Shown piece by piece: positions 44,107 through 62,550 of a stretch of 64,000 nt of DNA. Location: NCBI GenBank assembly GCA_947595215.1, contig CANQEO010000004.1, forward strand, positions 5,493-69,492. The letters run 5' to 3'. A program made the translations under genes and the position numbers. The DNA comes from an uncultured Bacilli bacterium (GTDB taxonomy: Bacteria > Bacillota_I > Bacilli_A > RFN20 > CAG-449). Under the pieces are notes generated by a model. That model saw only the letters and a list, made by a program, of their open reading frames with translations. It was not told where the DNA came from and ran no database searches. Position 1 is the first letter of the stretch. Each line of letters begins with the position of its first letter.

Positions 44107-44748
44107 TTACTTTAGTTTTGATAAATTGATCGGTCTACGACAGCAATATCCTTTTCCATATCTTGTTTCAATGATATTTGGATCTGGTAATTTACGTCGT
44201 AATGATTTTATGTGCATATCAACGGTTCTTGTTTCATAAGCAGAACCTACTCCCCAGATACCATTTAAGATATCTTTACGAGTTGCATAATCTTTAGCAG
44301 AAGCAATAATTTTAAGTATTTGAAATTCTTTATTAGTAAGCTTGATAGTTTGATTATTATAAATCACTTCATTTTCTCTTACCAGAAAAGTAAATGGTCC
44401 ATGTTTTTCACTCCAACAATCACGAGTAATTTCAGTAATAGACACTAAAAATTTACTATAATTTATCGGTTTAGTAATGCATGGTATATTATCGCGTTGT
44501 TCTCTACCTAGCAATAAAAGGAATTCTTTTGAGACTATAGTACATGCTTCTTTGATTACTTCATCAAGATGGTCTTTAGTAAAATCACTATCGATAACTA
44601 TTACATCAGCTTTGCTATGTACAAGTCGTTCGGTAAAATCAATCATCCTACTAATAGTGATAACTTCATAACCATTAAGTTTTAGAATTTTTTTCGCCGC
44701 ATTATTAATTCGGCGGTCATCTTCAATCAAACATATTGTGAGTTTCAT
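44107..44748 (-). CDS. Orphan OmpR/PhoB-type response regulator (receiver + winged-helix), atypical receiver
   Basis: Receiver features EDD and VIVIDSD (acceptor Asp) and KP; the position of the usual Thr/Ser reads LLLLG. C-terminal trans_reg_C motif (RTVDMHIKSLRRKL, IETRYGKGY). The ATG at 44748 lies 7 nt after AGGAG; the track start is 44790. No histidine kinase gene is in the window. Confidence 0.75.
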   Translation of the reverse strand: MKLTICLIEDDRRINNAAKKILKLNGYEVITISRMIDFTERLVHSKADVIVIDSDFTKDHLDEVIKEACTIVSKEFLLLLGREQRDNIPCITKPINYSKFLVSITEITRDCWSEKHGPFTFLVRENEVIYNNQTIKLTNKEFQILKIIASAKDYATRKDILNGIWGVGSAYETRTVDMHIKSLRRKLPDPNIIETRYGKGYCCRRPINLSKLK

Positions 44749-44855
44749 GGGACGACTCCTAATTCTAGAATGCCAATGACATATTGCCAAACACTCTATA
44801 TATTATTTTATCTCATTATCTTATAAATACAATAAAATTGAATAAGAAAATCTTT

Positions 44856-44898
44856 TGGTTAAACTATCTATTGCAATTGAAATTCAAATAATAGCAAT
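44856..44898. promoter_or_regulatory. 43-nt conserved box, copy A (upstream of the response-regulator gene)
   Basis: TGGTTAAACTATCTATTGCAATTGAAATTCAAATAATAGCAAT. It matches copy B at 49794..49836 in 39 of 43 positions. It contains TTGCAAT/TAGCAAT half-sites about 21 bp apart. A plausible TTGTAT-16-TAAAAT promoter follows on the minus strand. Confidence 0.55.
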
Positions 44899-45195
44899 AT
44901 AAAAATTCTTACAAAATATGTTAACGTATTAATTCAAAAAATATAATATTGAATGCAAGCCTAAATAAATAATGTTACATCTTCCTAAATGTTTTTAGAT
45001 TTTCTTTTGCTTTAATATTTGTTTATCAGCAAGTCTCAATTTATCTTTTTAACAATATATCAAAGCACTTTAAAAATACACTTGATAAAATTTACAAGAT
45101 TGAAGAAAACTATATTGGTTTATATCAATCGTTATACTTTTACAAGAGCGCTAAATATTCAACACTTTTATCGCAAATTTGCAAATATGTATCTT

Positions 45196-47019
45196 TTAAA
45201 TTTTTACTCTAATACTAGAATAAATATCGTAAATATCGTTTTCATTTAATGCAACAGGGAAATTTTTTAGTCTAGTCATATTCACTGATTCACATAATAT
45301 TTTCATCTGATTATCATCAATTTTTATGAGCGAATTATCGAAAACATCATTAATTATTTTACTTAAATATCTCATAGCATTACTTATCGAATCTACATTA
45401 AATAATATACTTAATTTTTCAAATATAATTTCGATATGTTTAACTTTTTTTGAATCAAGAATAACGCTTTTCTTTTCTATCAATTTTTGCATAACACTAG
45501 GCAAAAGCAAAGCAACCGCCTTACCATGCGGAATATTATAAAGAGATGTTAATTTATAACTTAATGCATGAGCCGCGGTAGTTTGCGAAATATTAATAGC
45601 TTTACCAGCCAAATTTGCAGCATCAAAAATAACTTGTAAATCTTCTAATTCACCATCTAAGTATCGCTGGATATTAGGTAAAATTAACTTTATTGCCTTT
45701 TCAGCATACTCAATACTTTGAGTATTAGAATTAATTGACCACATCGATTCTATACTATGGCAAAGTGCATCAAAAATTGTGGCTTTTTTCTGTTCTAAAG
45801 ATAATGTCTCTAAAAATTTTTTTTCTAAAATCGCTACTTCTGGTATCAACATATCATCAGTTAGAGATTGCTTATTTCCTTCGAAGTAAATTACAGAATA
45901 TCTAGTAGATTCGCTTCCCGTACCTGCAGTGGTAGGAATACAAATATGCTTTAAATTAATATATTTATGATTTTGCTTCAAAAAATTATCATTACTATCT
46001 AATGGTAAAAAAAGTTTAATTGATTTAGCGGTATCAATTGCACTTCCTCCACCAATCGAAATTATAGAATCACAATTATTCTTTTTAAATAATTCTAATC
46101 CTTTTACACAATCTTCATATATTGGATTAGCTTTAAAATCACTAAAATAAATCGGCTCTAAGAATTCTTCTAATTTCTGTGTAACCCAACCATTTTTCAA
46201 AAAAGGTGCTATAACAACAAAAGGTTTTTTTATATTATATTTTCCGATAATATTTCTTATGTTTTCAAAACCATACAAAATTTCTTGTTCCTTATAATCC
46301 ATAGCTTCTATTTCTTTAGAAACCTTTTCGTAATCATCTAAATTATCAATCTCATTAATATAAAAGCCATCATATGACATAACGTTAATATTCATATTAG
46401 ACGAAACTTCATTAAAAGCATTTTCAGCATAAACATCAAATATATTTTTGTTCTCTATAAAGTCAACTACCGAATTAATCCATACCTTAAAATCTTTTTG
46501 AGACAACTTATAAAGCGGTTGAAAAGTAAAGCAATTTTCATCAAATATATTGATGCCAACTTCTACAATCCGATTATTTATTACACGTGCTTTAAAATCT
46601 TTTTCTGGTAGCGGTAAATTCTTGTTAATTAATCCTATAGATGGAAATTTATTTTCAAGAATAGTTTCAACTAGTTTCTTATTAAATACGAGATCACCAT
46701 GAAGAGTCAAGAAATCATCATTCAAAAAATCTTTTGCAAGATAAAATGAATAGATGTAATTGGTTTTATCATACAAATCATTATGGACAAAATGAAAAAT
46801 TAAATCCTTATAAGCTTCCTTTTTAGTAATTTCAATTAACTGATGTTCAAATGGCCCGGTTGTAATAACAAATTCTTTGATTCCACATTCTTGTAAAATT
46901 CTAATTTGTCTTTCAAATAACGTTTCACCATTTAGTAATTTAATCATTGATTTATGGGTATGTGATGTTAACTCACCCATTCTTTTACCTATACCGGAAT
47001 TAAAAATCAACGCTTTCAT
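45196..47019 (-). CDS. Fusion: LicC/PntC-like nucleotidyltransferase (N) + group III iron-containing alcohol dehydrogenase (C); predicted phosphonoacetaldehyde reductase
   Basis: N-terminus ALIFNSGIGKRMG ... HGD ... NEIDNLDDY (NTP_transf_3 / LicC-like). C-terminus GGGSAIDTAKSI, PTTAGTGSE and HGKAVA (Fe-ADH). Its start abuts the stop of the phosphonopyruvate decarboxylase gene. Confidence 0.75.
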   Translation of the reverse strand: MKALIFNSGIGKRMGELTSHTHKSMIKLLNGETLFERQIRILQECGIKEFVITTGPFEHQLIEITKKEAYKDLIFHFVHNDLYDKTNYIYSFYLAKDFLNDDFLTLHGDLVFNKKLVETILENKFPSIGLINKNLPLPEKDFKARVINNRIVEVGINIFDENCFTFQPLYKLSQKDFKVWINSVVDFIENKNIFDVYAENAFNEVSSNMNINVMSYDGFYINEIDNLDDYEKVSKEIEAMDYKEQEILYGFENIRNIIGKYNIKKPFVVIAPFLKNGWVTQKLEEFLEPIYFSDFKANPIYEDCVKGLELFKKNNCDSIISIGGGSAIDTAKSIKLFLPLDSNDNFLKQNHKYINLKHICIPTTAGTGSESTRYSVIYFEGNKQSLTDDMLIPEVAILEKKFLETLSLEQKKATIFDALCHSIESMWSINSNTQSIEYAEKAIKLILPNIQRYLDGELEDLQVIFDAANLAGKAINISQTTAAHALSYKLTSLYNIPHGKAVALLLPSVMQKLIEKKSVILDSKKVKHIEIIFEKLSILFNVDSISNAMRYLSKIINDVFDNSLIKIDDNQMKILCESVNMTRLKNFPVALNENDIYDIYSSIRVKI

Positions 47020-48132
47020 TTATCTTACACCTAATTTTTTCATTAATGCAATTTTATTTTCTATAGGGGTGGTAGTTGGTCTTCCAAGATTCTCCCTAGA
47101 ACCTTGTTTTGTATGTAAAACTAATGCTACTGCATTCTCTTTTTTCAATACAGAAATACCTTTTTTTATTTCATCTTGAGTTGAGGCAATTATTACATTT
47201 TTAAACCCACAAGCCTTAAGAATTGCTGGAATATCTAGTGATTTTGAACAAGTTGGTTGTCCACCGACTGATTCGTGCGCATTATTGTCATTTAGAATAT
47301 ATTTAAAATTATTAGGCATATTAGCAGCAATGACGCCTAAACTTCCCATATGCATAATAAAAGAACCATCACCATCAATGCAATAAACATTCTTATCTGT
47401 TCCAATACTTACCCCATAAGCAATAGAAGCTGTATGTCCCATAGATCCTACAGTAAGAAAATCATTTGCATGACCTTGTTTATTTGCCTCTCTAATTTCA
47501 AAAATCTCACGAGAAGTCTTGCCTGTAGTAGAGACAATTATATCTTCATCAGACAATGAATCTATAATTGCTTTTAAAGCATCTTCTCTAGTCATTGTGT
47601 AGGAAGAGGTTTCTAACTTAATCTTATAATCGGAAAATAATCCTTTTTTAATTACTAAAGCATATGGTTTGTTGTTTTTATTCATGTAATCGATAGCTCT
47701 TGTCAAAGCATCTTGATAATTATCACTCAAAACCTCATAGTCAATTCCCATCGATTGCAATAATGGTATAGTTACTTTTCCTTGTTTTACGTGTTGTGGT
47801 TCATCATGTTTACCTGGTTCACCACGCCATCCAATTATTAAGAGCATTGGAATCGAGTAAACATCTTCATCCGCTAAAGATAATAATGGATTTATAGCAT
47901 TTCCTTCACCTGAGTTTTGCATATAAACACATCCTATCTTTCCAGTTGAAAGATGATAGCCTGCACACATAGCGACAGCATTACCTTCATTAGCGGTAAT
48001 GATATTTTTCTCTTTTGAAGAATTCATTTTAATACATGCACATAAATTCGCCAATAATGAATCAGGCACACCAGCAAAAAAATCAATATTGTTATCACAT
48101 AAATAATCGTAAAACTCTTTTGTGTCAATCAT
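47020..48132 (-). CDS. ppd: Phosphonopyruvate decarboxylase (TPP-dependent)
   Basis: 370 aa with the N-terminus FYDYLCDNNIDFFAGVPDSLL and the TPP-binding GDGSFIMHMG...N motif. Directly downstream of the PEP mutase gene. Confidence 0.85.
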   Translation of the reverse strand: MIDTKEFYDYLCDNNIDFFAGVPDSLLANLCACIKMNSSKEKNIITANEGNAVAMCAGYHLSTGKIGCVYMQNSGEGNAINPLLSLADEDVYSIPMLLIIGWRGEPGKHDEPQHVKQGKVTIPLLQSMGIDYEVLSDNYQDALTRAIDYMNKNNKPYALVIKKGLFSDYKIKLETSSYTMTREDALKAIIDSLSDEDIIVSTTGKTSREIFEIREANKQGHANDFLTVGSMGHTASIAYGVSIGTDKNVYCIDGDGSFIMHMGSLGVIAANMPNNFKYILNDNNAHESVGGQPTCSKSLDIPAILKACGFKNVIIASTQDEIKKGISVLKKENAVALVLHTKQGSRENLGRPTTTPIENKIALMKKLGVR

Positions 48133-48148
48133 AATAACTACTAGCTCC

Positions 48149-49462
48149 TTATTGCTTTGTACCTGGAATAAGTTCTAAAACTTCTTTTATTGAGATACAG
48201 TACTTTTGAGATGCTTCTAATGAACGATGATGTTTTAAAACTTCTTCAGCACAGTTTTTCATTGCAGGATATGCACTTCTTAACATATGGTTTGCATGAA
48301 TTATAATGTTGGCACCCCATTCATGCAATTCTTCTTCAGTGAATTGATTATATGAAGTAGGAACTAAAATGACAGGAATATCTTTAGAGTATTCTCTAAA
48401 TCTTCTCAAAAATTCTTTAATCTCTTGACCATCTTTTTCTTTAGAATGAATCATGATACCATCAGCACAACCTTCTTCGATATAAATCTTTGCTCTCATG
48501 AGGGCTTCCTCAATACCGTAACCGGCAATTAAAGCTTCTATTCTAGCAAAAATCAAGAAATCTTTTGTAACTTGAGCGATTTTACCAGCTTTAATCTTTT
48601 TGGCAAATTCATGTGGATCATCTAATACTTGTTTTGCTTCTGTACCAAACAAAGAATTTTGTTTTAAACCTGTTTTATCTTCAATAATAATTGCAGATAC
48701 TCCTAATCTTTCCAGAGTTCTAACATTATAGGTAAAATGTTCAGTTTTTCCACCAGTATCTCCATCTAAAATAATCGGTTTAGTTGTCACTTCCATTATC
48801 TCTTCGATAGTTCTAAGTCTTGAAGTTAAATCGACTAATTCAATATCTGGTTTACCTTTAAAAGAAGAATCACATAAAGAAGATACCCACATGGCATCAA
48901 ATTCTTTTTGTGTTTCATTATCTTCTTCAACTACTTTAGTATTCTCCACAATTAAACCCGTTAATCCATTGCTAGCTTCCATAACATTAACAAATGGTTT
49001 AAGCGTTAAAAGTTTTCTTAATTTAGCGCGACGATAATCGGGAGTATTTATTAATTCACGATAATTTTGTTCTAGCATAGTACTAGAAATATCTTTTGTA
49101 TAAGGAATTTCGATTAATTTGCCGCCCCAAGTAGCTAATGTATCAATAACTTTTTGGCGAATATTTCTTTGAATACCGGTTCTCCAATCATCGCCATGAA
49201 GAACATAATCAGGTTTTAATGCTATTAAATTATCTGTGTAATCTAATGTAGTTTGCGGAACAACTTTAGTTACACCCTTTATATTTTCAAAGATAATTTT
49301 TCTTTCTTCGTATGATAAAAGAGGCAATCTTTTGTAAGAAGCAATTGCTTCATCGGTTAACAAACCGACAATAACATTTCCCAATTTTATTCCTTCTTTA
49401 ATGATATTGATGTGACCATTATGAATAACATCAGCACTCATAACTATATAAACATTTTTCAT
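48149..49462 (-). CDS. Fusion: HxGH cytidylyltransferase domain (N) + phosphoenolpyruvate phosphomutase (C), Fom1-like architecture
   Basis: N-terminus [18 protein letters not shown] (the CTP-transferase HxGH motif). The C-terminus is ICL/PEP-mutase fold, with DGDTGG and the PepM-diagnostic EDKxxxxxNS present as [13 protein letters not shown]. Confidence 0.88.
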
Positions 49463-49793
49463 AATAAACTTTATACCTTTCTTACTGGACTATTTACCAT
49501 TTTATTTTGTTCTAATATTTTTTTAGCAAGTTAGTACAATATAAACCTCCATCTACTTTTAAATTATAAATAATCGCAAAAATTTTTACTATAGTTATAT
49601 GCATAATTTTTATAATACAAAAAAAATTTTAGATATATTATCACCTGTAATTTCATCACATCATTTAACATCTATAAAATCAGCAAATGCTTTAAAATTA
49701 TCATAATTTTTATCTATAATTATTTTTTATAACTTCCTAATTTACTTTTTAATCTAATTCTATTATCACTTTCACTCTTTAAACGACAGCTTA

Positions 49794-49836
49794 TGGTTAA
49801 ACTATTTATCGCAATAGAGATTCAAATAATAGCAAT
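49794..49836. promoter_or_regulatory. 43-nt conserved box, copy B (upstream of the phosphonate operon)
   Basis: TGGTTAAACTATTTATCGCAATAGAGATTCAAATAATAGCAAT. Same orientation as copy A. Lies 332-374 nt upstream of the PepM start codon. Confidence 0.55.
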
Positions 49837-49907
49837 TAAATATTTAAATAAGTTATATCTAATTAATATTTCTAAAGTTCATCAATTTTCTATTATCTCT
49901 TAAACAT

Positions 49908-49971: not shown

Positions 49972-51189
49972 TTATAGATTCTCTTTACGCAAGTATTTAA
50001 GTAAGAAAACTATCGATGCACTTGTGAATGGCATCATTTTATAGTTTTTTTCATTAATTATCATTTTATCTGGTTGAATTGTACAATGTTCTAAATCATC
50101 GATGGTAAGAAGTAAAAATTTCGAACCATCCATATTTTTAAAATGTTTGTCTTTTTTTAAATTCTCTACCTCTTGTTCAAAGTTGTAACGAAATTCCTCT
50201 TCTGAAAGATTTGTTTTCCAATAAAATATAAATTGTGGTTTGCCTCCCTCTAAAAGATCACGGCAAAACCCAAAGATTCCTTTAGTTATTTCAATATTAT
50301 TATCAATATCGATATTGAGTTCTTTTTTTATTTCTTCGATTATTGCTTTATTAAGTCCGTTTACACTCAGTGTTCTATCATCTTCAAGTGCGTATGCCGA
50401 TTTTAACGAAGCACTTACGCTACACCCTAAAGTTCTTTTACCAATCGAAAGATCGTTATCACGCTCAACAAAAATAATTTTGCCATTTTGAAGTTCGATA
50501 AAACCATTAAATCCTAAATGATTTGATAACTTTGAATCTTTTAATGAATTGAGGAAAGGACCCGGTTCATAAATATCTCTTATTGTTTTACCATTATTCA
50601 ACTTATAATCCATCACTCTATTTGTTATTAGTGAATCATAGTAATATGTTCGAGAATATAATAATTCTACTTTGTTTCCATTTGTTCTCAAATCATCCAA
50701 ACGAATACTCATAGAATTGTAAACCACTGAAAATTTATGAGCCTGCATTAAACAATCTGAATTTGTCGCAACTTGCGTGGGAAGTTGATAGTTTTTACTT
50801 GAATGTGAATGGTCTATAACTATATCAAATGGTGGTTGATCATAATAGCGGAAAACTAATTGTTCTACAGGAAATTTTTTGCCTTGATAGTCAATCATTT
50901 GCATACGGGAATATTTTTTGATAAGCGTATTATAGTCTGTAGTAAGTTTTGTTGCATCTTCACAAACTCTTCCTATAACGTTTTCTATAGAATAAGCAAT
51001 GATCTCACAAATAAAGGCAATAATAATAGCTACAAAAGTTTGAACATCAAATATATTTTCAAAACTTAAGGAGTTATCGATTGCTTTAAAAACTATTAAA
51101 AGCACAACCGGCACAAGGAAAATAATAACTTTAATCACAGTTGGATTAATAATATTTTTTAATACTCGATAAAATTTTTCTTTTGTCAT
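49972..51189 (-). CDS. Hypothetical membrane protein: two N-terminal TM helices + ~320-aa unassigned soluble domain
   Basis: The ATG at 51189 lies 7 nt after GGAG; the track start is 51216. TM helices are VIKVIIFLVPVVLLIVF and FVAIIIAFICEIIAYSI. The gene is monocistronic, with long non-coding flanks of 509 and ~690 bp. Confidence 0.6.
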   Translation of the reverse strand: MTKEKFYRVLKNIINPTVIKVIIFLVPVVLLIVFKAIDNSLSFENIFDVQTFVAIIIAFICEIIAYSIENVIGRVCEDATKLTTDYNTLIKKYSRMQMIDYQGKKFPVEQLVFRYYDQPPFDIVIDHSHSSKNYQLPTQVATNSDCLMQAHKFSVVYNSMSIRLDDLRTNGNKVELLYSRTYYYDSLITNRVMDYKLNNGKTIRDIYEPGPFLNSLKDSKLSNHLGFNGFIELQNGKIIFVERDNDLSIGKRTLGCSVSASLKSAYALEDDRTLSVNGLNKAIIEEIKKELNIDIDNNIEITKGIFGFCRDLLEGGKPQFIFYWKTNLSEEEFRYNFEQEVENLKKDKHFKNMDGSKFLLLTIDDLEHCTIQPDKMIINEKNYKMMPFTSASIVFLLKYLRKENL

Positions 51190-51353
51190 AAAAGATCTCC
51201 TACCAATATAATTCATTAAGTAAAATGTAACATATAAATCGCATTAAATCAAATTTATTATTGTTACTAAAGCGTGGCGATAATAGTATCAATTATAAAA
51301 AAAATATGGTTACGATATTAAAAATTTATGTAATCGAAAATGAAAAATACAAA

Positions 51354-51590
51354 AGAAAAACCACCTCCATAGATGGCTTCAACCGATTCGCAGAAATTGT
51401 ATTGTTAATAGAAACTCTCCTTTTCTAATCTTTTATATGAAGTTTCTTATCTACGTCTCGGTAGAGTATCTGGTGGTTCCCCTTTGCTAGCGACACTTAT
51501 CTTGCATACACAAGATTTGGAGATGGTTTTGTCTATATGCCAATGCATCAAGACGAAAGAATTATTATCTATAAATTCATTTTTGTAAAT
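51354..51590 (-). ncRNA. Candidate ~240-nt non-coding RNA or leader, delimited by a strong promoter and an intrinsic terminator
   Basis: Promoter on the minus strand: TTGACA (51624-51619), 16 nt spacer, TATAGT (51602-51597). Terminator: CCAUCU-AUGG-AGGUGG plus UUUUU at 51376-51354. The body is noticeably more GC-rich than its flanks and has no ORF of 60 aa or more. I could not assign an RNA class. Confidence 0.4.
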
Positions 51591-51845
51591 AGTAGCACTA
51601 TAAGAATTTTTATCAATTTGTCAACCGATATAATAATCATCTTTTTATAAATTTATTTTCAAAAAATTACAAAAAATGGAAACAAATACTTCGGTGTCTA
51701 TCATCTTGATACACAAAATACAATTCAAAAAGATAATACCATTTCAAGTTATAATTAAAAATTTTGTGACAGGTATGATCCCAAGAAGTCGCGAAATTTA
51801 CAAATTTTTACAAGTAATTTATTAAAAATATCAAATTTTTTTGTC

Positions 51846-51868
51846 AAAAAGTAATCTAAAAAGATTAC
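51846..51868 (-). terminator. Rho-independent terminator after the acetyltransferase gene
   Basis: On the minus strand: GTAATCT-TTTT-AGATTAC followed by TTTTT, beginning 10 nt after the stop codon. Confidence 0.7.
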
Positions 51869-51878
51869 ATTTATTAAA

Positions 51879-52421
51879 TTATTTTATAAATATTGGAATA
51901 TTTAAATGTGAATTGTTATTACTAATTTTTCTTGCCGGAACTCCTCCCCACGTTGTTCCCTCTTCAGTTATGCTTTTTGTAACTACTGCATTTGCTCCAA
52001 TCGCTACATCAGAAGCTATTTTTATATTTCCGATTACTTTACTGCCACTTCCTAATAATATGTTATCTCCAAGAATTGGAACATGATTAGATGGGCCCGA
52101 AGCACCTATTATACATTGAGCATGGATGCGAAGATTTTTACCAACTTTTGCTTTTCCATTTATAAAAATGCATCCTAAATGAGCTATTGATAATCCTGGT
52201 TCACATACATTCAAAGGTATATATGTTATATACTTATTGCTCAATCTATTTAATATAAACTTGTAGATTCGAAATCTTATTCTTTTATTGCAATTATAAA
52301 AATACTCGCAATAACGCAATAATTTAACATATTTAAACTCCTTCGAATTTAAACTTTGATTATTCTCAGAATCTTTCTTAATATATTCTTTTAAATCATT
52401 TTTTGTTTTTATCATAAGCAA
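51879..52421 (-). CDS. Left-handed beta-helix (hexapeptide) O-acetyltransferase, WcaB/CysE-like
   Basis: Hexapeptide repeats (IHAQCIIGASG..., LGDNILLGSGSKVIGNIKIASDVAIGANAVV). Located in the glycan locus. Confidence 0.75.
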   Translation of the reverse strand: MLMIKTKNDLKEYIKKDSENNQSLNSKEFKYVKLLRYCEYFYNCNKRIRFRIYKFILNRLSNKYITYIPLNVCEPGLSIAHLGCIFINGKAKVGKNLRIHAQCIIGASGPSNHVPILGDNILLGSGSKVIGNIKIASDVAIGANAVVTKSITEEGTTWGGVPARKISNNNSHLNIPIFIK

Positions 52422-52534
52422 ATGATAAAAAATATTTTAGTGTAAGACAATGTGTTTGTTATAAAATAAAAGATGTATATCTTTTTTACAATTATAATCA
52501 AAATTAAAAAATAAAGTTTTCAAAATGGAATATC

Positions 52535-54022
52535 TTAATATTTTCTTTGTTTTTTTCGCAGTAATTTTAATAAGTTTTTATTTATTAATAGATTAGTCGA
52601 CAATACAACGACAGAAGAAATAATTGTAAAAATCAAGCCATAAATTATAAAAGTAAAATAATCATTTATATCTGGTTTATAAAAATAATTGACTATAACA
52701 GCTAGAAAAAAAAGTAAGAAATTAAGAATTGCTGTCAAAGTTGTCTTATAACCTTTTCTTTTTAAAATAATTTTATCAGAAATTATGTTTACATAGATAA
52801 CCTTTATTGGAAGAGCTATTACAGTAGCCAATAAAACTCCAATTATACCAATAAATTTTACTAAAATGATAGATAATGACAGATTTATAAAAGCCTCAAG
52901 CAATGAAATATAACTCAATTTTTTAGCATATCCACCCAAGCCACATAGATTTTGACCAACATATCTACTCCAAGAAAACATTTGAACAAGACAAAATAAA
53001 ATAGGTAAACCCGGTATTAAATAATCTATATCATTAACTCCATTTGTATATAATTTAACAAAAGGTATGATTAAAAAATACGAAACTATCATTAGAATTG
53101 AAATCGAGCCACAAATGATAGAATTGAAATTATCATGAATTATCGTATATTTTTCTTTGCTTTCACTGAATGATTGACCAAGTATATGTTGCACGCTTCC
53201 AACACATGCATTTAACAACATATTTAAACTTGCAAAAACTAAATTGTAAACAGAATAAATACTTGCTGTTTCAGTAGAAATAAAAATCGATAAAATAACC
53301 ATATCTGTCGATGAAAAAATAGTCCACGCAATTTCTGTAATAATATATGAATTTCTATCTTTTAATTTTTCATTATTATCATCGGATTTAAAATTAACCC
53401 AAGCATAATGTTTTTTTGCATACAAGTTATAGATTAGTACTTTAATTAATGAAACAATAAAAAAACCAACTTGAATTAATGCAATATTAAATGAGAATAT
53501 AGCTAATAAAATTTTAACAACATAACAAAGTGTTTTAACTAATAAATCCACATTAGCCTTTACATAGTTTCTTCCATCGGCAATAAAAATACAATTCCAT
53601 TTCTCAACGAAATAAAATGATACAACACTTGTAAGTCCTTCAAACAATACATAAATTGCAATTGTCCAATAAGAAACTTTAGTTTTAAGAATAAAAGGTA
53701 ATACAAATGATAAAATAATTATCGTTAAAAGATAAAATATTGTTATTTTCTTAAAATATTTTTTCGAAATACTAAGTACTCTAGAAATATTTTCTTTATC
53801 ATCATTTTTTATATATGGATATAAGGAATTTCTTGTTGCTTGTCCGATACCAGCCTCCAATAATGCCACATAAGAAAAGATTTGAGTTATAGTACTTGTA
53901 AAGCCATTTGTGTCAGATCCATAGTTTAACAAAATAATACGTGGGATTATTAGTCCTAATATAAGAATAATTGATTGACTTATTAAACCAAAAGCAATAT
54001 TTTTAAATGCATTTTTCTTCAT
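52535..54022 (-). CDS. wzx: Wzx-type oligosaccharide flippase (MOP superfamily)
   Basis: Polytopic protein of about 495 aa with roughly 12-14 TM helices. The ATG at 54022 follows GGAGTG; the track start is 54079. Confidence 0.7.
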   Translation of the reverse strand: MKKNAFKNIAFGLISQSIILILGLIIPRIILLNYGSDTNGFTSTITQIFSYVALLEAGIGQATRNSLYPYIKNDDKENISRVLSISKKYFKKITIFYLLTIIILSFVLPFILKTKVSYWTIAIYVLFEGLTSVVSFYFVEKWNCIFIADGRNYVKANVDLLVKTLCYVVKILLAIFSFNIALIQVGFFIVSLIKVLIYNLYAKKHYAWVNFKSDDNNEKLKDRNSYIITEIAWTIFSSTDMVILSIFISTETASIYSVYNLVFASLNMLLNACVGSVQHILGQSFSESKEKYTIIHDNFNSIICGSISILMIVSYFLIIPFVKLYTNGVNDIDYLIPGLPILFCLVQMFSWSRYVGQNLCGLGGYAKKLSYISLLEAFINLSLSIILVKFIGIIGVLLATVIALPIKVIYVNIISDKIILKRKGYKTTLTAILNFLLFFLAVIVNYFYKPDINDYFTFIIYGLIFTIISSVVVLSTNLLINKNLLKLLRKKQRKY

Positions 54023-54932
54023 AATCACTCCAATTAAATCTTTGACACCATTGTTCAAGAGAAAAATATTCAACCACATCTTTTGAATAATCGATAAAAG
54101 GTTTATTCAAAAATGTAATAATTTCCTTATAGTTAAATCCATCCAAAACTAAAATATTATTCGGATTAAAGAATTTTTCATTTAATACATTCTTATTAGT
54201 AGTAATTAATTTCTTATTGAAATATATTGCTTCTTGAATTCTTAACGAATAACCAGCCTGATTAGTTTCAACATCTAATATAGCCTTACTTGAAACAATT
54301 TTTTTTAAGTATTCCTCATAAGGAATATAATTTTCTTGAGATATAGATAAATTTTTGGAAATAGCATTATCACATATAATTGTAAAATCCATTTTCAATA
54401 ACAAATTATTCATAATATTATATAAATCAAATTCATCAATTACTCTTCTTTTATACTTTCCCACAAAACAAATATCAAATTTTATATCAGTTTTTGGAAA
54501 ATCCTTTTTAAAATATGGCAAGGGATTATAAAGCAACTTGTATTTTTGACAATCAATAATGTCAAATGAGGAAATAAGAAAATTTGTTTTCTTCTTCAAT
54601 TGCTCTATTTTTTTTTCGGCTGACTTAGCAGAAGTAGAATTCATAAAGTAAAAAACCATTTTTTTTCTTAAACTTAGTTTTGATAGATATTTTAATATTT
54701 GCTTATTTTGTAAACAACTATCTAAAATAATTATTTGATCATACTTTTTTATAATTTTTAAATTGATATTGTAACAAAAACTAGGAATCGGAAGTTTGAA
54801 TTTACAACAAAATCTTTTTATAAAATAAAAAATTTTAGATTCATTAAAAATTTCAATTACTTTAAAATTTTTCAAATTAACAAAATTGAAAAAGTAATCA
54901 TCATGATTTAATTTAACAATTAATGTAGTCAT
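54003..54932 (-). CDS. Hypothetical transferase-like protein (C-terminal half resembles the GT-B / Glyco_trans_1_2, CgeB-like fold)
   Basis: Pattern DICFVGKY...R....L........Y.EYLKKIVSSKAILDV.......YSLRIQEAIYFNKKLITT, typical of a GT-B C-terminal Rossmann half. The N-terminal half is unassigned. Confidence 0.35.
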   Translation of the reverse strand: MTTLIVKLNHDDYFFNFVNLKNFKVIEIFNESKIFYFIKRFCCKFKLPIPSFCYNINLKIIKKYDQIIILDSCLQNKQILKYLSKLSLRKKMVFYFMNSTSAKSAEKKIEQLKKKTNFLISSFDIIDCQKYKLLYNPLPYFKKDFPKTDIKFDICFVGKYKRRVIDEFDLYNIMNNLLLKMDFTIICDNAISKNLSISQENYIPYEEYLKKIVSSKAILDVETNQAGYSLRIQEAIYFNKKLITTNKNVLNEKFFNPNNILVLDGFNYKEIITFLNKPFIDYSKDVVEYFSLEQWCQRFNWSDYEEKCI

Positions 54933-56184
54933 ATTTTTTTCTCCTTTTCGAAAAATTCATATTTAAATATGTAATACCAATTAGTCCAGGATAGAATAAA
55001 TCGGTTTGTGCTAAAGTAGTATTTAAGAACAAAAATATAAATAATAGTAAAAGAGAATATTTTCTATTTAAGAAATAAGGATATAGTAACCAAATAATAA
55101 CTAAAATTAGTGCAACAACACCATAAACCACACCAAAGCTTAAGATACTGGCAGCAACGTAACCAGTCCCTTTTATTAAAGCAGTAAAATTGTTATAACC
55201 AATTCCAAATGGATTTTTTATCATAGAATCTACGCACAATTCTATCATTCCAATACGATAATATCCTGTATCTATAGTTAAGTCTAATTGACCATTAGAA
55301 AATACTTTACCTATAAAATTTTCATATATTAAACTATTTTCACCTCTTATAGCAAAATCAAATACTGCAATTAATAAAATTAAAAGTAATATAAACACAA
55401 AAATATTTTTTTGCATTGACTTATACTTCCTATTAAAAATATAAAAGATGGCTAAAATTAAGAAACTAATGAATCCAGTCGTAGACTGACATGACAAAAG
55501 ACATAATAACGCTACAATTAACGTTTGGTTTCTTAAACTCTTATCTCCTATGTAATCGCTTTTAAATAACACAATATACAAAATAAAGTTTATCATTATC
55601 TGATAAACACCGGGTTCAGTATAAATTCCACAATTTCTATAAGGATGAAGATTGGCATTATACGTATATAATATAAAACCTCTACTATATTCGTATTTTT
55701 CATAACCTGCAACACCCCATTTAGCAGTTAAATATTCATGAAAAATTGACATTTGAAAAAAACTTGGAAAAATAAGTTGAATAATGAAAAAAAGTAAACT
55801 TATCCCAAAAAAGAATTTAGCACATTTTGCTAACCTCGTACAAAACATTTTTTTATTTATGTTTATTGCAGCATTACATATTAATATTCCATTCAAAAAA
55901 TCAATTGTCCCTTTTACTCCGATACCACCTACCATCAATCGACCGAAAAATGTTATTATTGTCAATATAAATAAAATTGCTAATGTATAATTATTCCTAA
56001 TCCCTTTATTCAATAAAGTAACTGCCAATAAAAAAATAAAAATCACAATTTTAACTATTGACGGAATAACCTTTGCATACAAAGAACTTCCTGGTATATA
56101 TAAAAACATTATGATGAGTAAATATTGCAAAAGCTCGGATACTTTAATTGAAGATAACTTTTCTTTTAACATCAATTTTTCCAT
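54913..56184 (-). CDS. wzy: Wzy-like polysaccharide polymerase / O-antigen ligase-like polytopic membrane protein
   Basis: 423 aa with about 10-12 TM helices and one larger loop. Adjacent to the flippase gene. Confidence 0.55.
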   Translation of the reverse strand: MEKLMLKEKLSSIKVSELLQYLLIIMFLYIPGSSLYAKVIPSIVKIVIFIFLLAVTLLNKGIRNNYTLAILFILTIITFFGRLMVGGIGVKGTIDFLNGILICNAAININKKMFCTRLAKCAKFFFGISLLFFIIQLIFPSFFQMSIFHEYLTAKWGVAGYEKYEYSRGFILYTYNANLHPYRNCGIYTEPGVYQIMINFILYIVLFKSDYIGDKSLRNQTLIVALLCLLSCQSTTGFISFLILAIFYIFNRKYKSMQKNIFVFILLLILLIAVFDFAIRGENSLIYENFIGKVFSNGQLDLTIDTGYYRIGMIELCVDSMIKNPFGIGYNNFTALIKGTGYVAASILSFGVVYGVVALILVIIWLLYPYFLNRKYSLLLLFIFLFLNTTLAQTDLFYPGLIGITYLNMNFSKRRKKYDYINC

Positions 56185-56487
56185 AGTTAGATTTATTCTT
56201 TCCTCCGATGCAATACTTTCTATTGTGAATATTCTTTTCTCTTTAAATAGAGATTATTTTTCAAATATAGATTAATCAGCTCTTTATTTATTATAAACAA
56301 CTAGCATTCAATTAAAAAGGATAAAATAATTTTTATAATAATATGAAAGAAATTATATCATAATACTTTTTTCCATATTAACTTAAAATCAACTATAAAA
56401 AACCACTTTTTTTACTTTGTAACGCTGCTCGAAACAAATTATAAAGCAACAATTGACATTTTCTTTGCTATAGTTCCTCTTAAAATA

Positions 56488-57525
56488 TTACGCATCTTTC
56501 TTTTCTTTAGGTTTGTAATTTCTTTCTAACCAATTCATATATTCTCCAGATTCGACATTTTGAATCCAATCTTGATGTTCAAGGTTCCATTTAATAGTAG
56601 CTTGAATTCCAGTATCAAAATTATGCTTCGGTTTCCAACCTAATTCGGATTCTATTTTTGTAGGATCCATCGCATATCGTAAATCATGACCCGGACGATC
56701 TTTTACGTAACTTATTAACGATTCAGGTTTACCTAGTGTTTTTAAAATCGTTTTTACAACCTCTAAATTGGTCTTTTCATTATGTCCACCAATATTATAT
56801 ATCTCTCCATTGCGACCATTTCTAACAATCAAATCAATTGCAGTACAATGATCTTCAACATATAGCCAGTCTCTAACATTGCTACCATTACCATATACTG
56901 GTAAAGGTTCATTTTTTAGGGCCTTTTGAATCATTAATGGAATTAATTTTTCAGGAAAATGATATGGTCCATAGTTATTTGAACACCTTGAAATAGTTAC
57001 TGGTAAATTATAAGTTCTATGATATGCTAAAACTAACAAGTCTGCGCTTGCTTTAGATGCGCTATATGGACTTGAAGTATGTAGAGGAGTATCTTCATGG
57101 AAAAACAAATCAGGTCTATCTAGTGGTAAATCTCCATATACTTCATCTGTAGAAACTTGATGATATCTTTTTATACCATATTTTCTACATGCATCCATTA
57201 AAACTTGAGTTCCTAAAATATTTGTCTTCAAGAAAATTTCAGGATTTTCAATTGAACGATCCACATGAGACTCAGCCGCAAAGTTAATGACATAATCAAA
57301 ATTTTCCTCTTTAAATATTTTATATATGGCTTCACGATTACAAATATTTTCATGTATAAATTTAAAATTTGGTTTATTTAAAATAGGACCTAAAGTCTCC
57401 ATATTACCAGCATATGTTAAGGCATCAATGCATACAAAAAAATCATTCGGATATTTGTCAACCATAATGTGAAGGTAATTTCCACCTATAAAACCAGCTC
57501 CACCACTTACTAAAAATTTTGCCAT
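56488..57525 (-). CDS. rfbB: dTDP-glucose 4,6-dehydratase
   Basis: GGAGFIGGN, the YSASKASAD catalytic motif, and an extended-SDR layout over 345 aa. Confidence 0.9.
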   Translation of the reverse strand: MAKFLVSGGAGFIGGNYLHIMVDKYPNDFFVCIDALTYAGNMETLGPILNKPNFKFIHENICNREAIYKIFKEENFDYVINFAAESHVDRSIENPEIFLKTNILGTQVLMDACRKYGIKRYHQVSTDEVYGDLPLDRPDLFFHEDTPLHTSSPYSASKASADLLVLAYHRTYNLPVTISRCSNNYGPYHFPEKLIPLMIQKALKNEPLPVYGNGSNVRDWLYVEDHCTAIDLIVRNGRNGEIYNIGGHNEKTNLEVVKTILKTLGKPESLISYVKDRPGHDLRYAMDPTKIESELGWKPKHNFDTGIQATIKWNLEHQDWIQNVESGEYMNWLERNYKPKEKKDA

Positions 57526-57664
57526 ATAAATCTCCTTTATATTTAAGCTATTAAAGCCATTTCGAATAATTGTATCATGTTATTTATGCATTGTCAAATT
57601 TTACAGATTAAGGTAATACCATTGCGTCAATATTTAGTCAAAGTTAAAAGTTGTATTAATGTAG

Positions 57665-58579
57665 TTATATTTTCAAATTCTTTTTTAACCAAGTAGCTGT
57701 TTTTAAAATTGATTCTTTAAAATCACTTTTTGGAGTAAAACCGGTGTCCTCTCGAAGTGCCTTTAAATTAATTAACGAATAATTTATAGCGTTCGTATCA
57801 GCATAAACGCCAAAATTCAATACTCCATTAGGATTTACAAAATCTCGAATACTTCTAAAAATTGTTCCAAACGTAGAAATGGTATCGTGACCAATATAGT
57901 ATGTTTTCTGATTTATACCTTTCTCGCCAATCGCATAGAATGCTCTTGCAACATCTTCAACGTAAATTAAATCGTATGGAGTATCATCGGGAATTAAATT
58001 TGACGGATTATTTTTTAATAGATTTTCTAATACAATATTAGGTATCATTTTAGATTTATTATTTTCGCCATAAACCATTGCAATTAATCCACAATTAAAC
58101 TCTATGTTATTTTGATATGCCAATGTTTTACAAATCATTTCTGCTGAAAGTTTACAAGTAGCATAAACATTAGTATAGCGCGGTTCAAAAGAATCTAATG
58201 ACATATAGTGACGCGTTTCTAACACATTAACAGAAGAAGCTAAGATAAACTTTTTACAACTCAAATTTTTTGCAATCATTAATGCATCACATGCATATTT
58301 ACAATTTAAAAGTTGCAATTCATAATTTTTAAATGCTTCTCCGAATACTCCATTCCAAGCTAGATGGTAAAAACAATCTAAGTTTCTCGGTAATTTATCT
58401 TTTAAAATATAGTACTCTTCAAAATAAGCTTTAATAAAGTGTAATTTATCACATTTTAAACTATTTAAACGATCTTCATCAGTACCAACCGCATACACTT
58501 CGACACCTTGTTTTAAAAGATATTCAACTAAGCGAGACCCAATAAATCCAGTTGCACCAGTTACACAAACCGCTTTCAT
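57665..58579 (-). CDS. NAD(P)-dependent extended SDR (epimerase/dehydratase family); predicted dTDP-4-keto-sugar 4-ketoreductase
   Basis: VTGATGFIGSRL and YATCK (YxxxK). Its position follows the epimerase gene in the deoxysugar operon. Confidence 0.65.
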   Translation of the reverse strand: MKAVCVTGATGFIGSRLVEYLLKQGVEVYAVGTDEDRLNSLKCDKLHFIKAYFEEYYILKDKLPRNLDCFYHLAWNGVFGEAFKNYELQLLNCKYACDALMIAKNLSCKKFILASSVNVLETRHYMSLDSFEPRYTNVYATCKLSAEMICKTLAYQNNIEFNCGLIAMVYGENNKSKMIPNIVLENLLKNNPSNLIPDDTPYDLIYVEDVARAFYAIGEKGINQKTYYIGHDTISTFGTIFRSIRDFVNPNGVLNFGVYADTNAINYSLINLKALREDTGFTPKSDFKESILKTATWLKKNLKI

Positions 58580-59146
58580 TTAATTATTTTCCTTCATGGT
58601 AAAATTGACATCGCTATCTTTTAAATAAGGAGCGGTAATATCCTTTTGTGAAACAATCGGATTATCACAACCCCAAGGAATATTAATCTCAGGATCATCC
58701 CATTTTATAGAACGATCAAGTTTAGGTTCATAGAGTCCATCAACTTTGTAAAGAACTTCACACTCATCAACCAAAGTTATAAAAGCATGACCAAAACCCG
58801 ATGGAATAAGGATTTGTTTTCTATTTTCTTTACTTAATTCGACACAAACCCACTTTTTAAAAGTAGGTGAATCTTTTCTTAAATCAACAGCATAATCCAT
58901 TACTTTTCCATTGGTGCAACGTACTAACTTTGCTTGAGGAACAGGATTGTTTTGAAAATGAATACCGCGAATAGTACCCTTTTTTATTGAATATGAATGA
59001 TTATCTTGGACAAAATCCAAATTTATCCCCAGATTTAATAACGTTCTTTTCGAATAAACTTCACTATAATATCCGCGATAATCTTCAAAATAATCCGGTT
59101 CGATAACTTTTACACCTAATCCAATTTCTGTAATTTTAGCACCCAT
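58580..59146 (-). CDS. dTDP-4-keto-6-deoxyhexose 3,5-epimerase (RmlC-like cupin)
   Basis: FEDYRGYY, RGIHFQ and GFGHAF motifs. The ATG at 59146 follows GGAGG; the track start is 59170. Confidence 0.85.
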   Translation of the reverse strand: MGAKITEIGLGVKVIEPDYFEDYRGYYSEVYSKRTLLNLGINLDFVQDNHSYSIKKGTIRGIHFQNNPVPQAKLVRCTNGKVMDYAVDLRKDSPTFKKWVCVELSKENRKQILIPSGFGHAFITLVDECEVLYKVDGLYEPKLDRSIKWDDPEINIPWGCDNPIVSQKDITAPYLKDSDVNFTMKENN

Positions 59147-59147
59147 T

Positions 59148-60170
59148 TTAAATGTCCTCCTTAAATTCATCTACTAACTTAGATTGAATAACTAAATTTT
59201 TATAATTTTCATCTCTAATTTTATCATCATAAATACATTTTATAAAGTGTTCTATTGATTTTCTAAAAGAATCGTCGGCAGGAAGTTTTACTTTATTTGT
59301 TTCATTTCCTAATGTTATTGTGACTAAAGGCTCAAAATTATCAGGAGCAGTTAATATTCTATTTGTGTAAATAGTTCCTTTTGATCCCCAAATTTCTAGT
59401 TCACATTTGTAAGAATTGTCCATTCCGAAAGATACTTGACAAATAGTTCCTTCATCATTTACTAGTGTACCACTACCATATATATCGACATCAAAATTAT
59501 CTACATAATTTAATTGATGCGTTACCAATCTAGCTGATGAACCTAATAGTCGTGTTGCTAATTTTAAGGTATAGCCACCACAATCTAATAATGCACCACC
59601 ACCTAGATTTTTATTGTATCGAAAATCATTTTTTCCTCTAAATGGAAAGCCAAAAGCAATTCTAATTAACCTTGTACTTCCGAACGATTCTTTCCTTATT
59701 TCATTTTCAATAAATTCTATTTGACTATGGAAATTAAACATATAATTTTCGTGGAGAGCTAACTTATTTTCTTTTGCAATATCGACTAATTCTGTAGTAT
59801 CTGTTAATTGTGTAGTCGATGGTTTTTCAACAAAAACATGCTTACCATTTTCTAGAGCCAATTTCGCCCATTTAAAGTGAAGCGCAGGTGGTAATGGAAT
59901 ATATACTGCATCTATTTTATCACTCTTTAATAATGATTCGTAACTATCAAATATTTCTCCACCATATGATTCTTTAAATTTTAATGCTTTATCATACTCT
60001 ATTTTTAAGATATTTAAATCATTGTTGGGAGAGGTTTTTCCAAACCATTCTTCTTCGTTTGCAGCAGCAATACCGATATATTCTATATCTTCTACTTTTT
60101 TTAGAGCGGGCATAAATCTTCTGAATGCAATTTCAGAAGGGCATAGAATTGCTAATCTTATTTTTGTCAT
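59148..60170 (-). CDS. Gfo/Idh/MocA-family oxidoreductase; predicted NDP-hexose 3-ketoreductase
   Basis: N-terminal Rossmann fold and the EKP motif (VFVEKPST). Lies immediately downstream of the 2,3-dehydratase gene, as in deoxysugar clusters. Confidence 0.7.
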   Translation of the reverse strand: MTKIRLAILCPSEIAFRRFMPALKKVEDIEYIGIAAANEEEWFGKTSPNNDLNILKIEYDKALKFKESYGGEIFDSYESLLKSDKIDAVYIPLPPALHFKWAKLALENGKHVFVEKPSTTQLTDTTELVDIAKENKLALHENYMFNFHSQIEFIENEIRKESFGSTRLIRIAFGFPFRGKNDFRYNKNLGGGALLDCGGYTLKLATRLLGSSARLVTHQLNYVDNFDVDIYGSGTLVNDEGTICQVSFGMDNSYKCELEIWGSKGTIYTNRILTAPDNFEPLVTITLGNETNKVKLPADDSFRKSIEHFIKCIYDDKIRDENYKNLVIQSKLVDEFKEDI

Positions 60171-60171
60171 A

Positions 60172-61542: not shown

Positions 61543-61553
61543 ATTGAAACCTT

Positions 61554-62438
61554 TTAATAAATAATTTTTCCTTTTGCAACGTTAAGTAAATGCTCTCCAT
61601 ATTGGTTTTTCGCCATTGACTTTCCAATTTCTATTAATTGATCTTTGGTAATCCATCCGTTTTTGTATGCAATTTCTTCAGGACAGCACACTTTTATTCC
61701 TTGATGATCCTCTAAAATTTTAATATAGTTAGATGCATCAACCAAAGATTCATGCGTTCCAGTATCTAACCAAGAATATCCTCTTCCAAGAGTAGTAACA
61801 TGTAATTTATTTTGTTCAAGATACATATTATTCAAAGATGTAATTTCATACTCCCCTCTTTCAGAAAGCGGAACCGACTTAGCTAATTTGGTGACTCCTT
61901 TTGGATAAAAGTATAATCCTGTAACACAATAATTCGATTTAGGATTTTTTGGTTTTTCTTCAATAGAGATTGCATTATTATTCTCATCCAATTCAACAAT
62001 CCCATATCTTTCTGGGTCTTTAACAAAGTATCCATAAATAGTAGCACAATCCTCATTCGCTCTTGATACAGAATTTTTTAAATGTTTAATTAATCCTGCA
62101 CCATAGAAGATATTATCTCCTAATATCAGTGCACAAGAATCATCTCCAATAAACTCTTCTCCAATAATAAAAGCTTGTGCTAATCCATCAGGAGAAGGTT
62201 GTATTGCATACGATAAATTTATTCCAAACTTAGAACCGTCTCCTAATAATGCTTGAAAGCGAGGAGTATCCGTTGGAGTAGAAATAATTAAAATATCTTT
62301 AATGCCAGCCATCATCAAAGTACTTAATGGATAATAAATCATAGGTTTGTCGTAAACCGGTAATAATTGTTTCGAAGTAACCAGTGTTAATGGGTAAAGT
62401 CTAGTTCCAGATCCACCAGCTAATATAATTCCTTTCAT
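61554..62438 (-). CDS. rfbA: Glucose-1-phosphate thymidylyltransferase
   Basis: [18 protein letters not shown] and full-length RmlA similarity. The ATG at 62438 follows GGAGG; the track start is 62462. Confidence 0.92.
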
Positions 62439-62550
62439 ATTCATTTCCTCCATTTTGTACACATAATCAATATTAATGTATCATAATTAGACTAATCTTT
62501 GTATAAAAAATAAAATAATCAACAATTCAAAGCAAATATATAGAAATATT

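Follow-up and report, generated by a model that had tools for sequence, protein, structure and literature searches.

We analyzed a three-gene phosphonate cassette that encodes two unrelated nucleotidyltransferase (NTase) domains and lies in a 64,000-nt stretch of DNA from an uncultured Bacilli bacterium of the CAG-449 lineage (assembly GCA_947595215.1, contig CANQEO010000004.1, positions 5,493 to 69,492; the whole stretch is hereafter called the window). The three genes are on the minus strand, separated by intergenic gaps of 16 nt and 0 nt, and the cassette is bordered by non-coding DNA of 509 nt on one side and 405 nt on the other. Gene 1 (48149-49462) encodes a 437-aa fusion of a cytidylyltransferase (CyTase) with phosphoenolpyruvate (PEP) mutase (PepM), gene 2 (47020-48132) a 370-aa phosphonopyruvate decarboxylase (Ppd), and gene 3 (45196-47019) a 607-aa fusion of the second NTase with an Fe-dependent alcohol dehydrogenase (Fe-ADH), for which we propose a role in making and activating 2-hydroxyethylphosphonate (HEP).

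Domain structure of the cassette proteins

The N-terminal region of the 437-aa protein (residues 1-140; 49043-49462) is a Fom1-type CyTase domain of the HxGH class (PF01467), in which the Pfam match to CTP_transf_like (52 bits) spans residues 10-131. Its HNGH motif occupies residues 14-17 (49412-49423), and the codon of Asp92, within an HGDDW motif, lies at 49187-49189. The PepM domain (residues 148-437; 48149-49021) scored 373 bits against the NCBIfam model TIGR02320, above the curated cut-off of 319.55, and its diagnostic motif of the EDKxxxxxNS type begins at residue 261 of the fusion. Ppd scored 445 bits against TIGR03297, again above the curated cut-off (312.5). In the 607-aa protein, the N-terminal LicC/PntC-type NTase domain (hereafter NT3; 46285-47019) was matched by Pfam NTP_transf_3 and NTP_transferase (PF12804, PF00483) at residues 2-123, with a structural extent of about residues 1-245. 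This domain bears the signature GIGKRMGELTSHTHK (46951-46995), and the codon of its residue His107 is at 46699-46701. The remainder (residues 246-607; 45196-46284) is the Fe-ADH domain, a predicted phosphonoacetaldehyde (PnAA) reductase, with Pfam matches to Fe-ADH (116 bits) and ADH_Fe_C (72 bits) over residues 252-529. An AlphaFold2 model of the 607-aa fusion, built from a 40-sequence alignment, had a mean pLDDT of 93.6 and a pTM of 0.90; with this confident model and abundant full-length homologues at 46-62% identity, the open reading frames of the cassette are real genes.

By fold and motifs, the ADH domain belongs to group III of the Fe-ADHs. The top Foldseek matches of the whole 607-aa model were Fe-ADHs, including the sulfoacetaldehyde reductase 6JKO; the ADH domain dominated the matches, and the search gave no information on the NTase domain. 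GGGS, D417, H484 and H498 are invariant among 55 sequences collected from genome loci, the set used for all 55-sequence counts below. At residue 421 (45757-45759), the second canonical metal ligand of group III enzymes (DxxxH), the protein studied here has His and 44 of the 55 relatives have Gln; the remaining three metal-ligand positions are invariant across the relatives. We predict the PnAA-reductase role from context, as over 80 loci have the ADH next to PepM and Ppd.

Some relatives of the Fe-ADH (~40-47% identity; P0128, P0133, P0143 and P0147) are fused to LicD, to a TagF-type glycerophosphotransferase plus MptE-like domains, or to both. Two loci with such fusions, L094 (8001-12000) and L097 (713-8743), have no PepM or Ppd nearby, and L097 contains genes of the 3-deoxy-D-manno-octulosonate (Kdo) pathway. 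The ADHs there may therefore act on other substrates, and we did not accept the ADH-LicD and ADH-TagF fusions as added support for a phosphonate role. The Fe-ADH subfamily probably also makes non-phosphonate alditol-phosphate donors.

Catalytic and branch-specific residues of the two NTase domains

The CyTase domain matched the CyTase domain of Fom1 (PDB 5X3D) with 185.7 bits (E 4.5e-54), and about 80 of the 133 aligned residues, counted from the alignment, are identical (~60%). D11, H14 and G16 are invariant in all 55 sequences, and H17 is present in 54. For NT3, the best solved relatives of the family profile were LicC (1JYK, 66 bits) and Treponema denticola Tde1415 (6PD1, 53 bits), a fusion of PntC with 2-aminoethylphosphonate (AEP) transaminase (AEPT). 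Alignment with Tde1415 equated R13 with R15, K23 with K25, H107 with E104, D109 with D106, and E199 with E196; R15 and K25 are needed for the activity of the T. denticola PntC (Tde-PntC) (PMC6697681). G9, G11, R13, K23, H107, D109, K140, K143, E223 and D225 are invariant in 55/55 sequences, E199 occurs in 53/55, and the acidic metal ligands (D106 of Tde1415 and the EID motif of the LicC E216 type) are matched by the invariant D109, E223 and D225. Set against the expected GXG(T/S)RX4-8PK, the signature G9-I-G11-K12-R13-X8-H22-K23 retains the catalytic residues and deviates at two non-catalytic positions: the T/S site is Lys in 40/55 sequences, and the Pro site is His in 44/55 and Pro in 11/55. 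Mean pairwise identities over 54 loci were 0.62 for the CyTase, 0.57 for NT3, 0.61 for Ppd, 0.73 for PepM and 0.46 for the ADH. Both NTase domains are thus under constraint comparable to that on Ppd, and neither appears to be a decayed scaffold.

The apparent redundancy of two NTases is odd in general, and together with the NT3 signature deviations (Lys12 for Thr/Ser, and His22 for Pro in 44/55) it could be taken to mean that one domain has no catalytic activity and serves as a scaffold or as an allosteric sensor of nucleotides. However, HxGH, G9/G11/R13/K23, D109 and E223/D225 show little or no variation among the 55 sequences, and conservation over the whole domains equals that of Ppd, so that we regard this explanation as highly improbable. 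The original prediction had itself named loss of essential catalytic residues in one domain, leaving a mere scaffold, as grounds for refuting a dual activity; since the key motifs are retained in both domains, this objection does not apply. Its description of the proteins also agrees with our results: the Pfam domains identify the 607-aa protein as a LicC/PntC-type NTase joined to an Fe-ADH, the strings that it quoted, ALIFNSGIGKRMG and NEIDNLDDY, both occur in this protein, and the structurally different HxGH CyTase that it placed on the PepM protein is recognizable by HNGH at residues 14-17, the CTP_transf_like match and the similarity to 5X3D.

Certain residues of both domains differ between cassettes of the HEP branch (ADH-type) and those of the AEP branch (AEPT-type). 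NT3 position 107 is His in all 82 ADH-type domains and Glu in all 29 AEPT-type domains. In the crystal structure of Tde-PntC, two residues form hydrogen bonds with the amine of AEP, one of them being the corresponding Glu104 (PMC6697681). As to the two acidic nitrogen contacts (E104 and E196 in Tde1415; D105 and D192 in LicC), NT3 keeps E196 as E199 and has the invariant His107 in place of E104. This replacement fits a non-amine substrate such as HEP, and the domain is therefore better described as a variant resembling PntC than as a PntC specific for AEP. Further shifts from the AEPT type to the ADH type are Trp to Ala198, just before E199, Asp or Glu to Lys140, and a hydrophobic residue to Lys143; jointly, the changes at positions 107, 198, 140 and 143 would make the pocket a poorer fit for a cation. 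In the HGD(D/N)W motif of the CyTase, Asp92 is found in 68/69 ADH-type domains and in Fom1, and Asn in 49/50 AEPT-type domains. On the PepM tree there is just one change of the ADH/AEPT label, and both switches trace to this single split; the covariation therefore represents a single evolutionary event without statistical independence, and we rejected it as independent evidence, since independent contrasts are impossible with one change. The weight of the switches lies in position 107 being a known substrate contact, not in the counts. The invariant His107 of HEP-type domains in place of Glu and the parallel Asp/Asn92 switch of the CyTase are newly seen here.

Distribution and genomic context

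In a search that drew on a collection of 5.8 billion proteins, at least 120 protein clusters matched the NTase-ADH fusion, and all of those listed were full-length fusions with 46-62% identity. A scan of one genome per GTDB species gave 410 confirmed relatives, of which the best 80 were essentially all full-length. The relatives are mostly from Bacillota, with others from Bacteroidota, Actinomycetota and one metagenome-assembled genome (MAG) of Chloroflexota, and there are three cultured carriers, Anaerosporobacter mobilis DSM 15930, Yeguia hominis NSJ-40 (L067) and Butyrivibrio sp. LB2008. Among 51 genome loci chosen by the fusion and having at least 4 kb on both sides, 42 showed exactly the order CyTase-PepM, Ppd, NT3-ADH. 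When the CyTase-PepM protein was used as the query in a 399-genome sample of the phylum of the window, three of the four other matches had the same trio. PepM was not found in a same-genus genome that is 96% complete, and the cassette is therefore accessory.

The domains also occur in other combinations. Relatives with a stand-alone ADH were found in the arrangements CyTase-PepM/Ppd/NT3/ADH and Ppd/NT3/CyTase-PepM/ADH. Three HEP-type loci with NT3-CyTase-PepM triple fusions, confirmed by Pfam, came from a metagenome scan seeded with AEP-type CyTase-PepM, and NT3-ADH-LicD triple fusions were present in about 11 sampled loci and in the protein P0073. A LicD gene is present no more than 10 kb away in 39 of 73 CyTase-type loci. 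The AEP-seeded scan, in which loci with adequate flanks were counted, also served as the sample of the AEP branch: an extra LicC-type NTase was present within the cassette in 19 AEPT-type CyTase-PepM loci and absent in four, and the HEP-type loci from the same scan, which had not been selected by NT3, all contained NT3. Two NTases are the majority state in the sampled AEP and HEP branches.

In the literature, Rice et al. 2019 reported that ~60% of Ppm proteins are NTase-fused and that 42 Ppm proteins are fused to both PF12804 and PF01467, and their clusters include a ppm-fused NTase with a second NTase one or two genes away (PMC6697681). Dual NTases per cluster have thus already been noted. 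The premise of the original prediction, that phosphonate systems use one NTase type or the other, is wrong because dual NTases dominate the sampled loci and appear in this earlier survey. The prediction would also have been refuted by an architecture both common and already characterized; half of this holds, in that it is common (120 listed clusters, 410 relatives), and we found no characterized NTase-Fe-ADH fusion and no HEP-specific PntC in the searchable literature, in agreement with the expectation that an NTase fused to the PnAA reductase is uncharacterized. Li and Horsman 2022 merely listed PhpC-type neighbourhoods as unexplored.

Some cassettes have a single NTase. Of the two types, L093 and L135-139 have just the CyTase, and eight Lachnospiraceae loci (L061, L063, L064, L066, L069, L071, L077 and L083) have just NT3-ADH. 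The latter share a lipid-type gene cluster consisting of an acyltransferase, an acyl-AMP ligase, a B12-binding radical SAM protein, a CDP-alcohol phosphatidyltransferase, a 216-aa protein of unknown function, a PepM without CyTase, Ppd and NT3-ADH, and this cluster is present in the cultured A. mobilis DSM 15930 and Butyrivibrio sp. LB2008 (L066:3008-11788 and L069:2979-11806). It looks like a route to an HEP phosphonolipid, which is possibly methylated. As NT3-ADH is the sole NTase beside the CDP-alcohol phosphatidyltransferase, NT3 alone can supply an activated donor. This cluster with its CyTase-less PepM and the NTase-ADH-LicD triple fusions are likewise newly seen here. The B12-binding radical SAM protein of the cluster recalls Fom3, which acts on CMP-HEP, and gave only generic scores (132 bits for HpnR, 76 bits for the PhpK family).

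In the genome studied here, the cassette sits at the 3' end of a capsular polysaccharide (cps)/Wzy locus. The window is part of a 77.6-kb contig (C4) in an 851-kb MAG that is 65% complete. Upstream of the cassette and on the same strand, Pfam and NCBIfam identified cps-type glycan genes (49972-63723), which include a dTDP-dideoxyhexose set and glycosyltransferases: Glf, RmlA, an NDP-hexose 2,3-dehydratase, an oxidoreductase, an RmlC-like protein, an epimerase, RmlB, a Wzy-like protein, a WaaS/CpsH glycosyltransferase, a 514-aa protein of unknown function, an acetyltransferase and a 414-aa protein of unknown function with two transmembrane helices. Past the window, the locus continues (C4:69000-77626; L003) with GT4 glycosyltransferases, a radical SAM/SPASM protein, LicD, Bac_transf and CpsB. 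The LicD (PF04991, 157.6 bits; C4:72849-73487, minus strand), ~3.4 kb past the right edge of the window, is the only one in the MAG; choline kinase and further NTases of either cassette type were not found in this 65% complete assembly. The radical SAM/SPASM protein (386 aa; L003:2577-3737, minus strand, equal to C4:71576-72736) is encoded immediately downstream of LicD.

The gene content resembles Fom1/Fom2/FomC, which would suit a cassette that makes a small-molecule natural product similar to fosfomycin rather than a surface decoration. Nevertheless, no Fom3, Fom4 or FomD-type tailoring gene lies within the window, the cassette is embedded in a LicD-bearing cps/Wzy locus, and other lineages have it fused to LicD; we find such a product scarcely credible. 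In a same-order genome that lacks LicD at this position, a homologue of the TagF-family CDP-glycerol glycerophosphotransferases (L090:7356-8591; 249 bits) directly precedes the HEP cassette, which hints at a teichoic-acid-like use of CMP-HEP.

A proposed route to CMP-HEP and the role of each NTase

The domains with their retained motifs, the conservation, the gene contexts and the fusions presented above are observations; from them we infer the pathway activities, which substrate each NTase uses, and the role of LicD on the acceptor side. In our preferred reading, which we hold with a probability of about 0.7, the cassette makes CMP-HEP from PEP, and the 607-aa protein is the HEP counterpart of PntC-AEPT, feeding the LicD of the locus. 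PepM would convert PEP to phosphonopyruvate, Ppd would convert phosphonopyruvate to PnAA, and the Fe-ADH domain would reduce PnAA to HEP, which would then be cytidylylated to CMP-HEP. The 607-aa protein would accordingly be bifunctional, the domain that makes the final phosphonate being joined to the LicC/PntC-type cytidylyltransferase that activates it, and the pocket of the latter may have been re-tuned from an amine to a hydroxyl by the change of Glu to His107 and of Trp to Ala198 and by the gain of Lys140 and Lys143. LicD of the same cps locus would use CMP-HEP to place HEP on a capsule or exopolysaccharide; that it installs HEP from CMP-HEP on a glycan is the simplest reading. The cassette as a whole would be self-contained and horizontally mobile.

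The PepM-fused CyTase would run the Fom1 reaction. The Fom1 CyTase domain is reported to convert HEP and CTP to CMP-HEP (Cho et al. 2017, as cited in PMC6697681), and, judged from the ~60% identity and the shared Asp92 of HGDDW, the domain studied here most likely catalyzes the same reaction as this close relative. There would then be two convergent routes to CMP-HEP in one cassette, the usual state in glycan-type phosphonate cassettes. The LicC-type domain appears to be tied to the end product, as it is fused to the maker of that product both here and in Tde1415 and occurs in NT3-ADH-LicD fusions. We conclude with moderate confidence that both NTases make CMP-HEP and that the LicC-type domain is the main supplier. 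The occurrence of the CyTase alone or NT3 alone in some cassettes means that each is sufficient somewhere.

The order of the last two steps could also be reversed, with NT3 cytidylylating PnAA, the ADH reducing CMP-PnAA to CMP-HEP, and the Fom1-type domain handling free HEP. Each NTase would then have a substrate of its own, and this order has a precedent in the CDP-6-D-glucitol synthesis of Campylobacter jejuni, where the cytidylyltransferase acts before the reductase (PMC10918830). However, NT3 position 107 tracks the final group (OH or NH3+) and not the aldehyde common to both branches, which disfavours the reversed order; moreover, the NT3 homologue in Tde1415 acts on finished AEP (PMC6697681), and in Bcs1 reduction comes before cytidylyl transfer. 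We therefore consider the reversed order unlikely.

A further alternative, less probable than our preferred reading and yet deserving attention, is that the two NTases are non-redundant, the PepM-fused and the ADH-fused domains having different substrates or roles. The division might, for example, be between HEP and another phosph(on)ate or modified HEP, or between different transferases, or the PepM-fused domain might control the CMP-HEP pool or the flux through PepM. Both domains are kept with intact motifs in most glycan-type HEP and AEP cassettes, whether fused, split, reordered or in one polypeptide; the constraint on the two domains is similar, many loci encode either two or three paralogues of LicD or a transferase of the TagF type, and loss of the CyTase coincides with the switch from a glycan to a lipid context. 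On the other hand, each type is the sole NTase somewhere (the CyTase in L093 and L135-139, NT3 in the lipid-type loci), the relatives Fom1 and Tde/Ari-PntC both make CMP-phosphonates from CTP (PMC6697681), and the residue switches of both domains track HEP versus AEP, indicating that both see the end product and not a shared upstream intermediate. A tentative extension is that the two NTases are functionally distinct and that cassettes of the HEP and AEP branches alike require the pair for phosphonate decoration of the glycan type. The pair might, for example, supply two activated species or two transferases (LicD paralogues, TagF-type enzymes, possibly an HEP-containing polymer), or the PepM-fused domain might gate flux through the unfavourable mutase step. 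If the pair is distinct and required, the one-NTase 'Pnt' pathway scheme is incomplete.

Several observations weigh against the preferred reading, in which the cassette makes CMP-HEP for LicD with NT3 as the main supplier. First, the best NCBIfam match of the ADH domain, TIGR03405 (Phn_Fe-ADH), reached 130 bits, below the cut-off of 423.7; this model of the PsrA/PhpC-like PnAA reductases is the only curated PnAA-reductase model. Second, the covariation of His/Glu107 with Asp/Asn92 rests on one ADH/AEPT split of the PepM tree. Third, LicD is ~18 kb from the cassette, and as the MAG is 65% complete, other transferases or choline genes may be unassembled. At last, strict redundancy fits poorly with the co-retention of two NTases across hundreds of lineages and in several fusion states; their co-retention in most glycan-type cassettes argues against plain redundancy.

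Cell-surface phosphonate decoration is common in host-associated bacteria, and to our knowledge its biochemistry has been worked out only for AEP. In gut Bacillota, Bacteroidota and some Actinomycetota, this cassette seems to be the main route to HEP, and it reveals a predicted PntC subtype that would be specific for HEP and is easily recognized by His107 in place of Glu. The NTase-ADH-LicD proteins are Rosetta-stone fusions that tie activation to transfer. The puzzle of the two NTases is sharpened, with a CyTase ~60% identical to a proven CMP-HEP maker standing beside an unrelated NTase predicted to do the same job, and it is made testable by the cultured carriers Y. hominis (glycan type) and A. 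mobilis and Butyrivibrio sp. LB2008 (lipid type).

As for the sequences flanking the cassette, a repeat search (family D1) found a 56-nt box (49790-49845) in the 509-nt leader upstream of pepM and a second copy in the same orientation (44852-44907) upstream of the gene of an orphan OmpR-type regulator (44107-44790); the two copies are 84% identical over 56 nt. The orphan regulator could control the cassette, and no similar orphan response regulator was found beside 158 other cassettes. Between 44000 and 52000, promoter-like sites (58 against 53 expected) and terminator-like sites (2 against 2.3 expected) were uninformative in this AT-rich DNA, and an Rfam scan of the leaders gave no match. The 414-aa protein directly upstream of the cassette (49972-51216, minus strand) carries its two transmembrane helices at the N-terminus and has no Pfam match; as it has no homologue near ~160 other cassettes, it probably does not belong to the phosphonate system. 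A 309-aa protein (54003-54932, minus strand), also without a Pfam match, was considered as a phosphonate-transferase candidate and rejected, as NCBIfam identified it as the WaaS/CpsH glycosyltransferase (149 bits against a cut-off of 60 bits).

Comparison with known systems

The Streptomyces Fom1/Fom2/FomC system of fosfomycin biosynthesis likewise combines a CyTase-PepM fusion, Ppd and an Fe-ADH, which, according to the sources cited for it, give CMP-HEP, and the ~60% identical CyTase domains share the HxGH, HGDDW and YTxxISST motifs. The cassette described here differs in that it adds a LicC-type NTase on the ADH, lacks Fom3, Fom4 and FomD, and lies in a polysaccharide locus with LicD. Streptococcus pneumoniae LicC/LicD (1JYK/1JYL) provides the best sequence match in the PDB for the NTase fold (66 bits) and the same logic of a CMP-activated head group that is moved to a glycan by LicD; there, however, the head group is imported choline and here a de novo phosphonate, the Trp that precedes the acidic pocket residue of LicC (W-D) is Ala198 in NT3, and the search for a choline kinase in the MAG found none.

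The Bcs1/TarIJ CDP-ribitol synthases, in which the NTase is of the IspD type and the dehydrogenase of the short- or medium-chain class, have folds unrelated to those of the 607-aa protein and act on a phosphate rather than a phosphonate substrate, making them an analogy and not a homology. What they have in common with it, as far as the citing paper describes them, is a reductase and a cytidylyltransferase in one polypeptide and a CDP/CMP-activated alditol-type donor for capsule or teichoic acid (Zolli et al. 2001, as cited in PMC10299916). The closest parallel is T. denticola Tde1415 (PntC-AEPT; 6PD1/6PD2; PMC6697681), whose N-terminal LicC/PntC-type NTase is joined to the enzyme producing the final phosphonate out of PnAA; the gene is clustered with Ppd and an NTase-fused Ppm, and R15, K25, D106 and E196 correspond to R13, K23, D109 and E199. 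Its C-terminal domain is a class-V aminotransferase yielding AEP, in contrast to the Fe-ADH predicted to yield HEP here, its amine ligand Glu104 is replaced by His107, and it is distant in sequence (53 bits to the family profile). We regard the 607-aa protein as the HEP analogue of PntC-AEPT, an assignment that would be no surprise to specialists.

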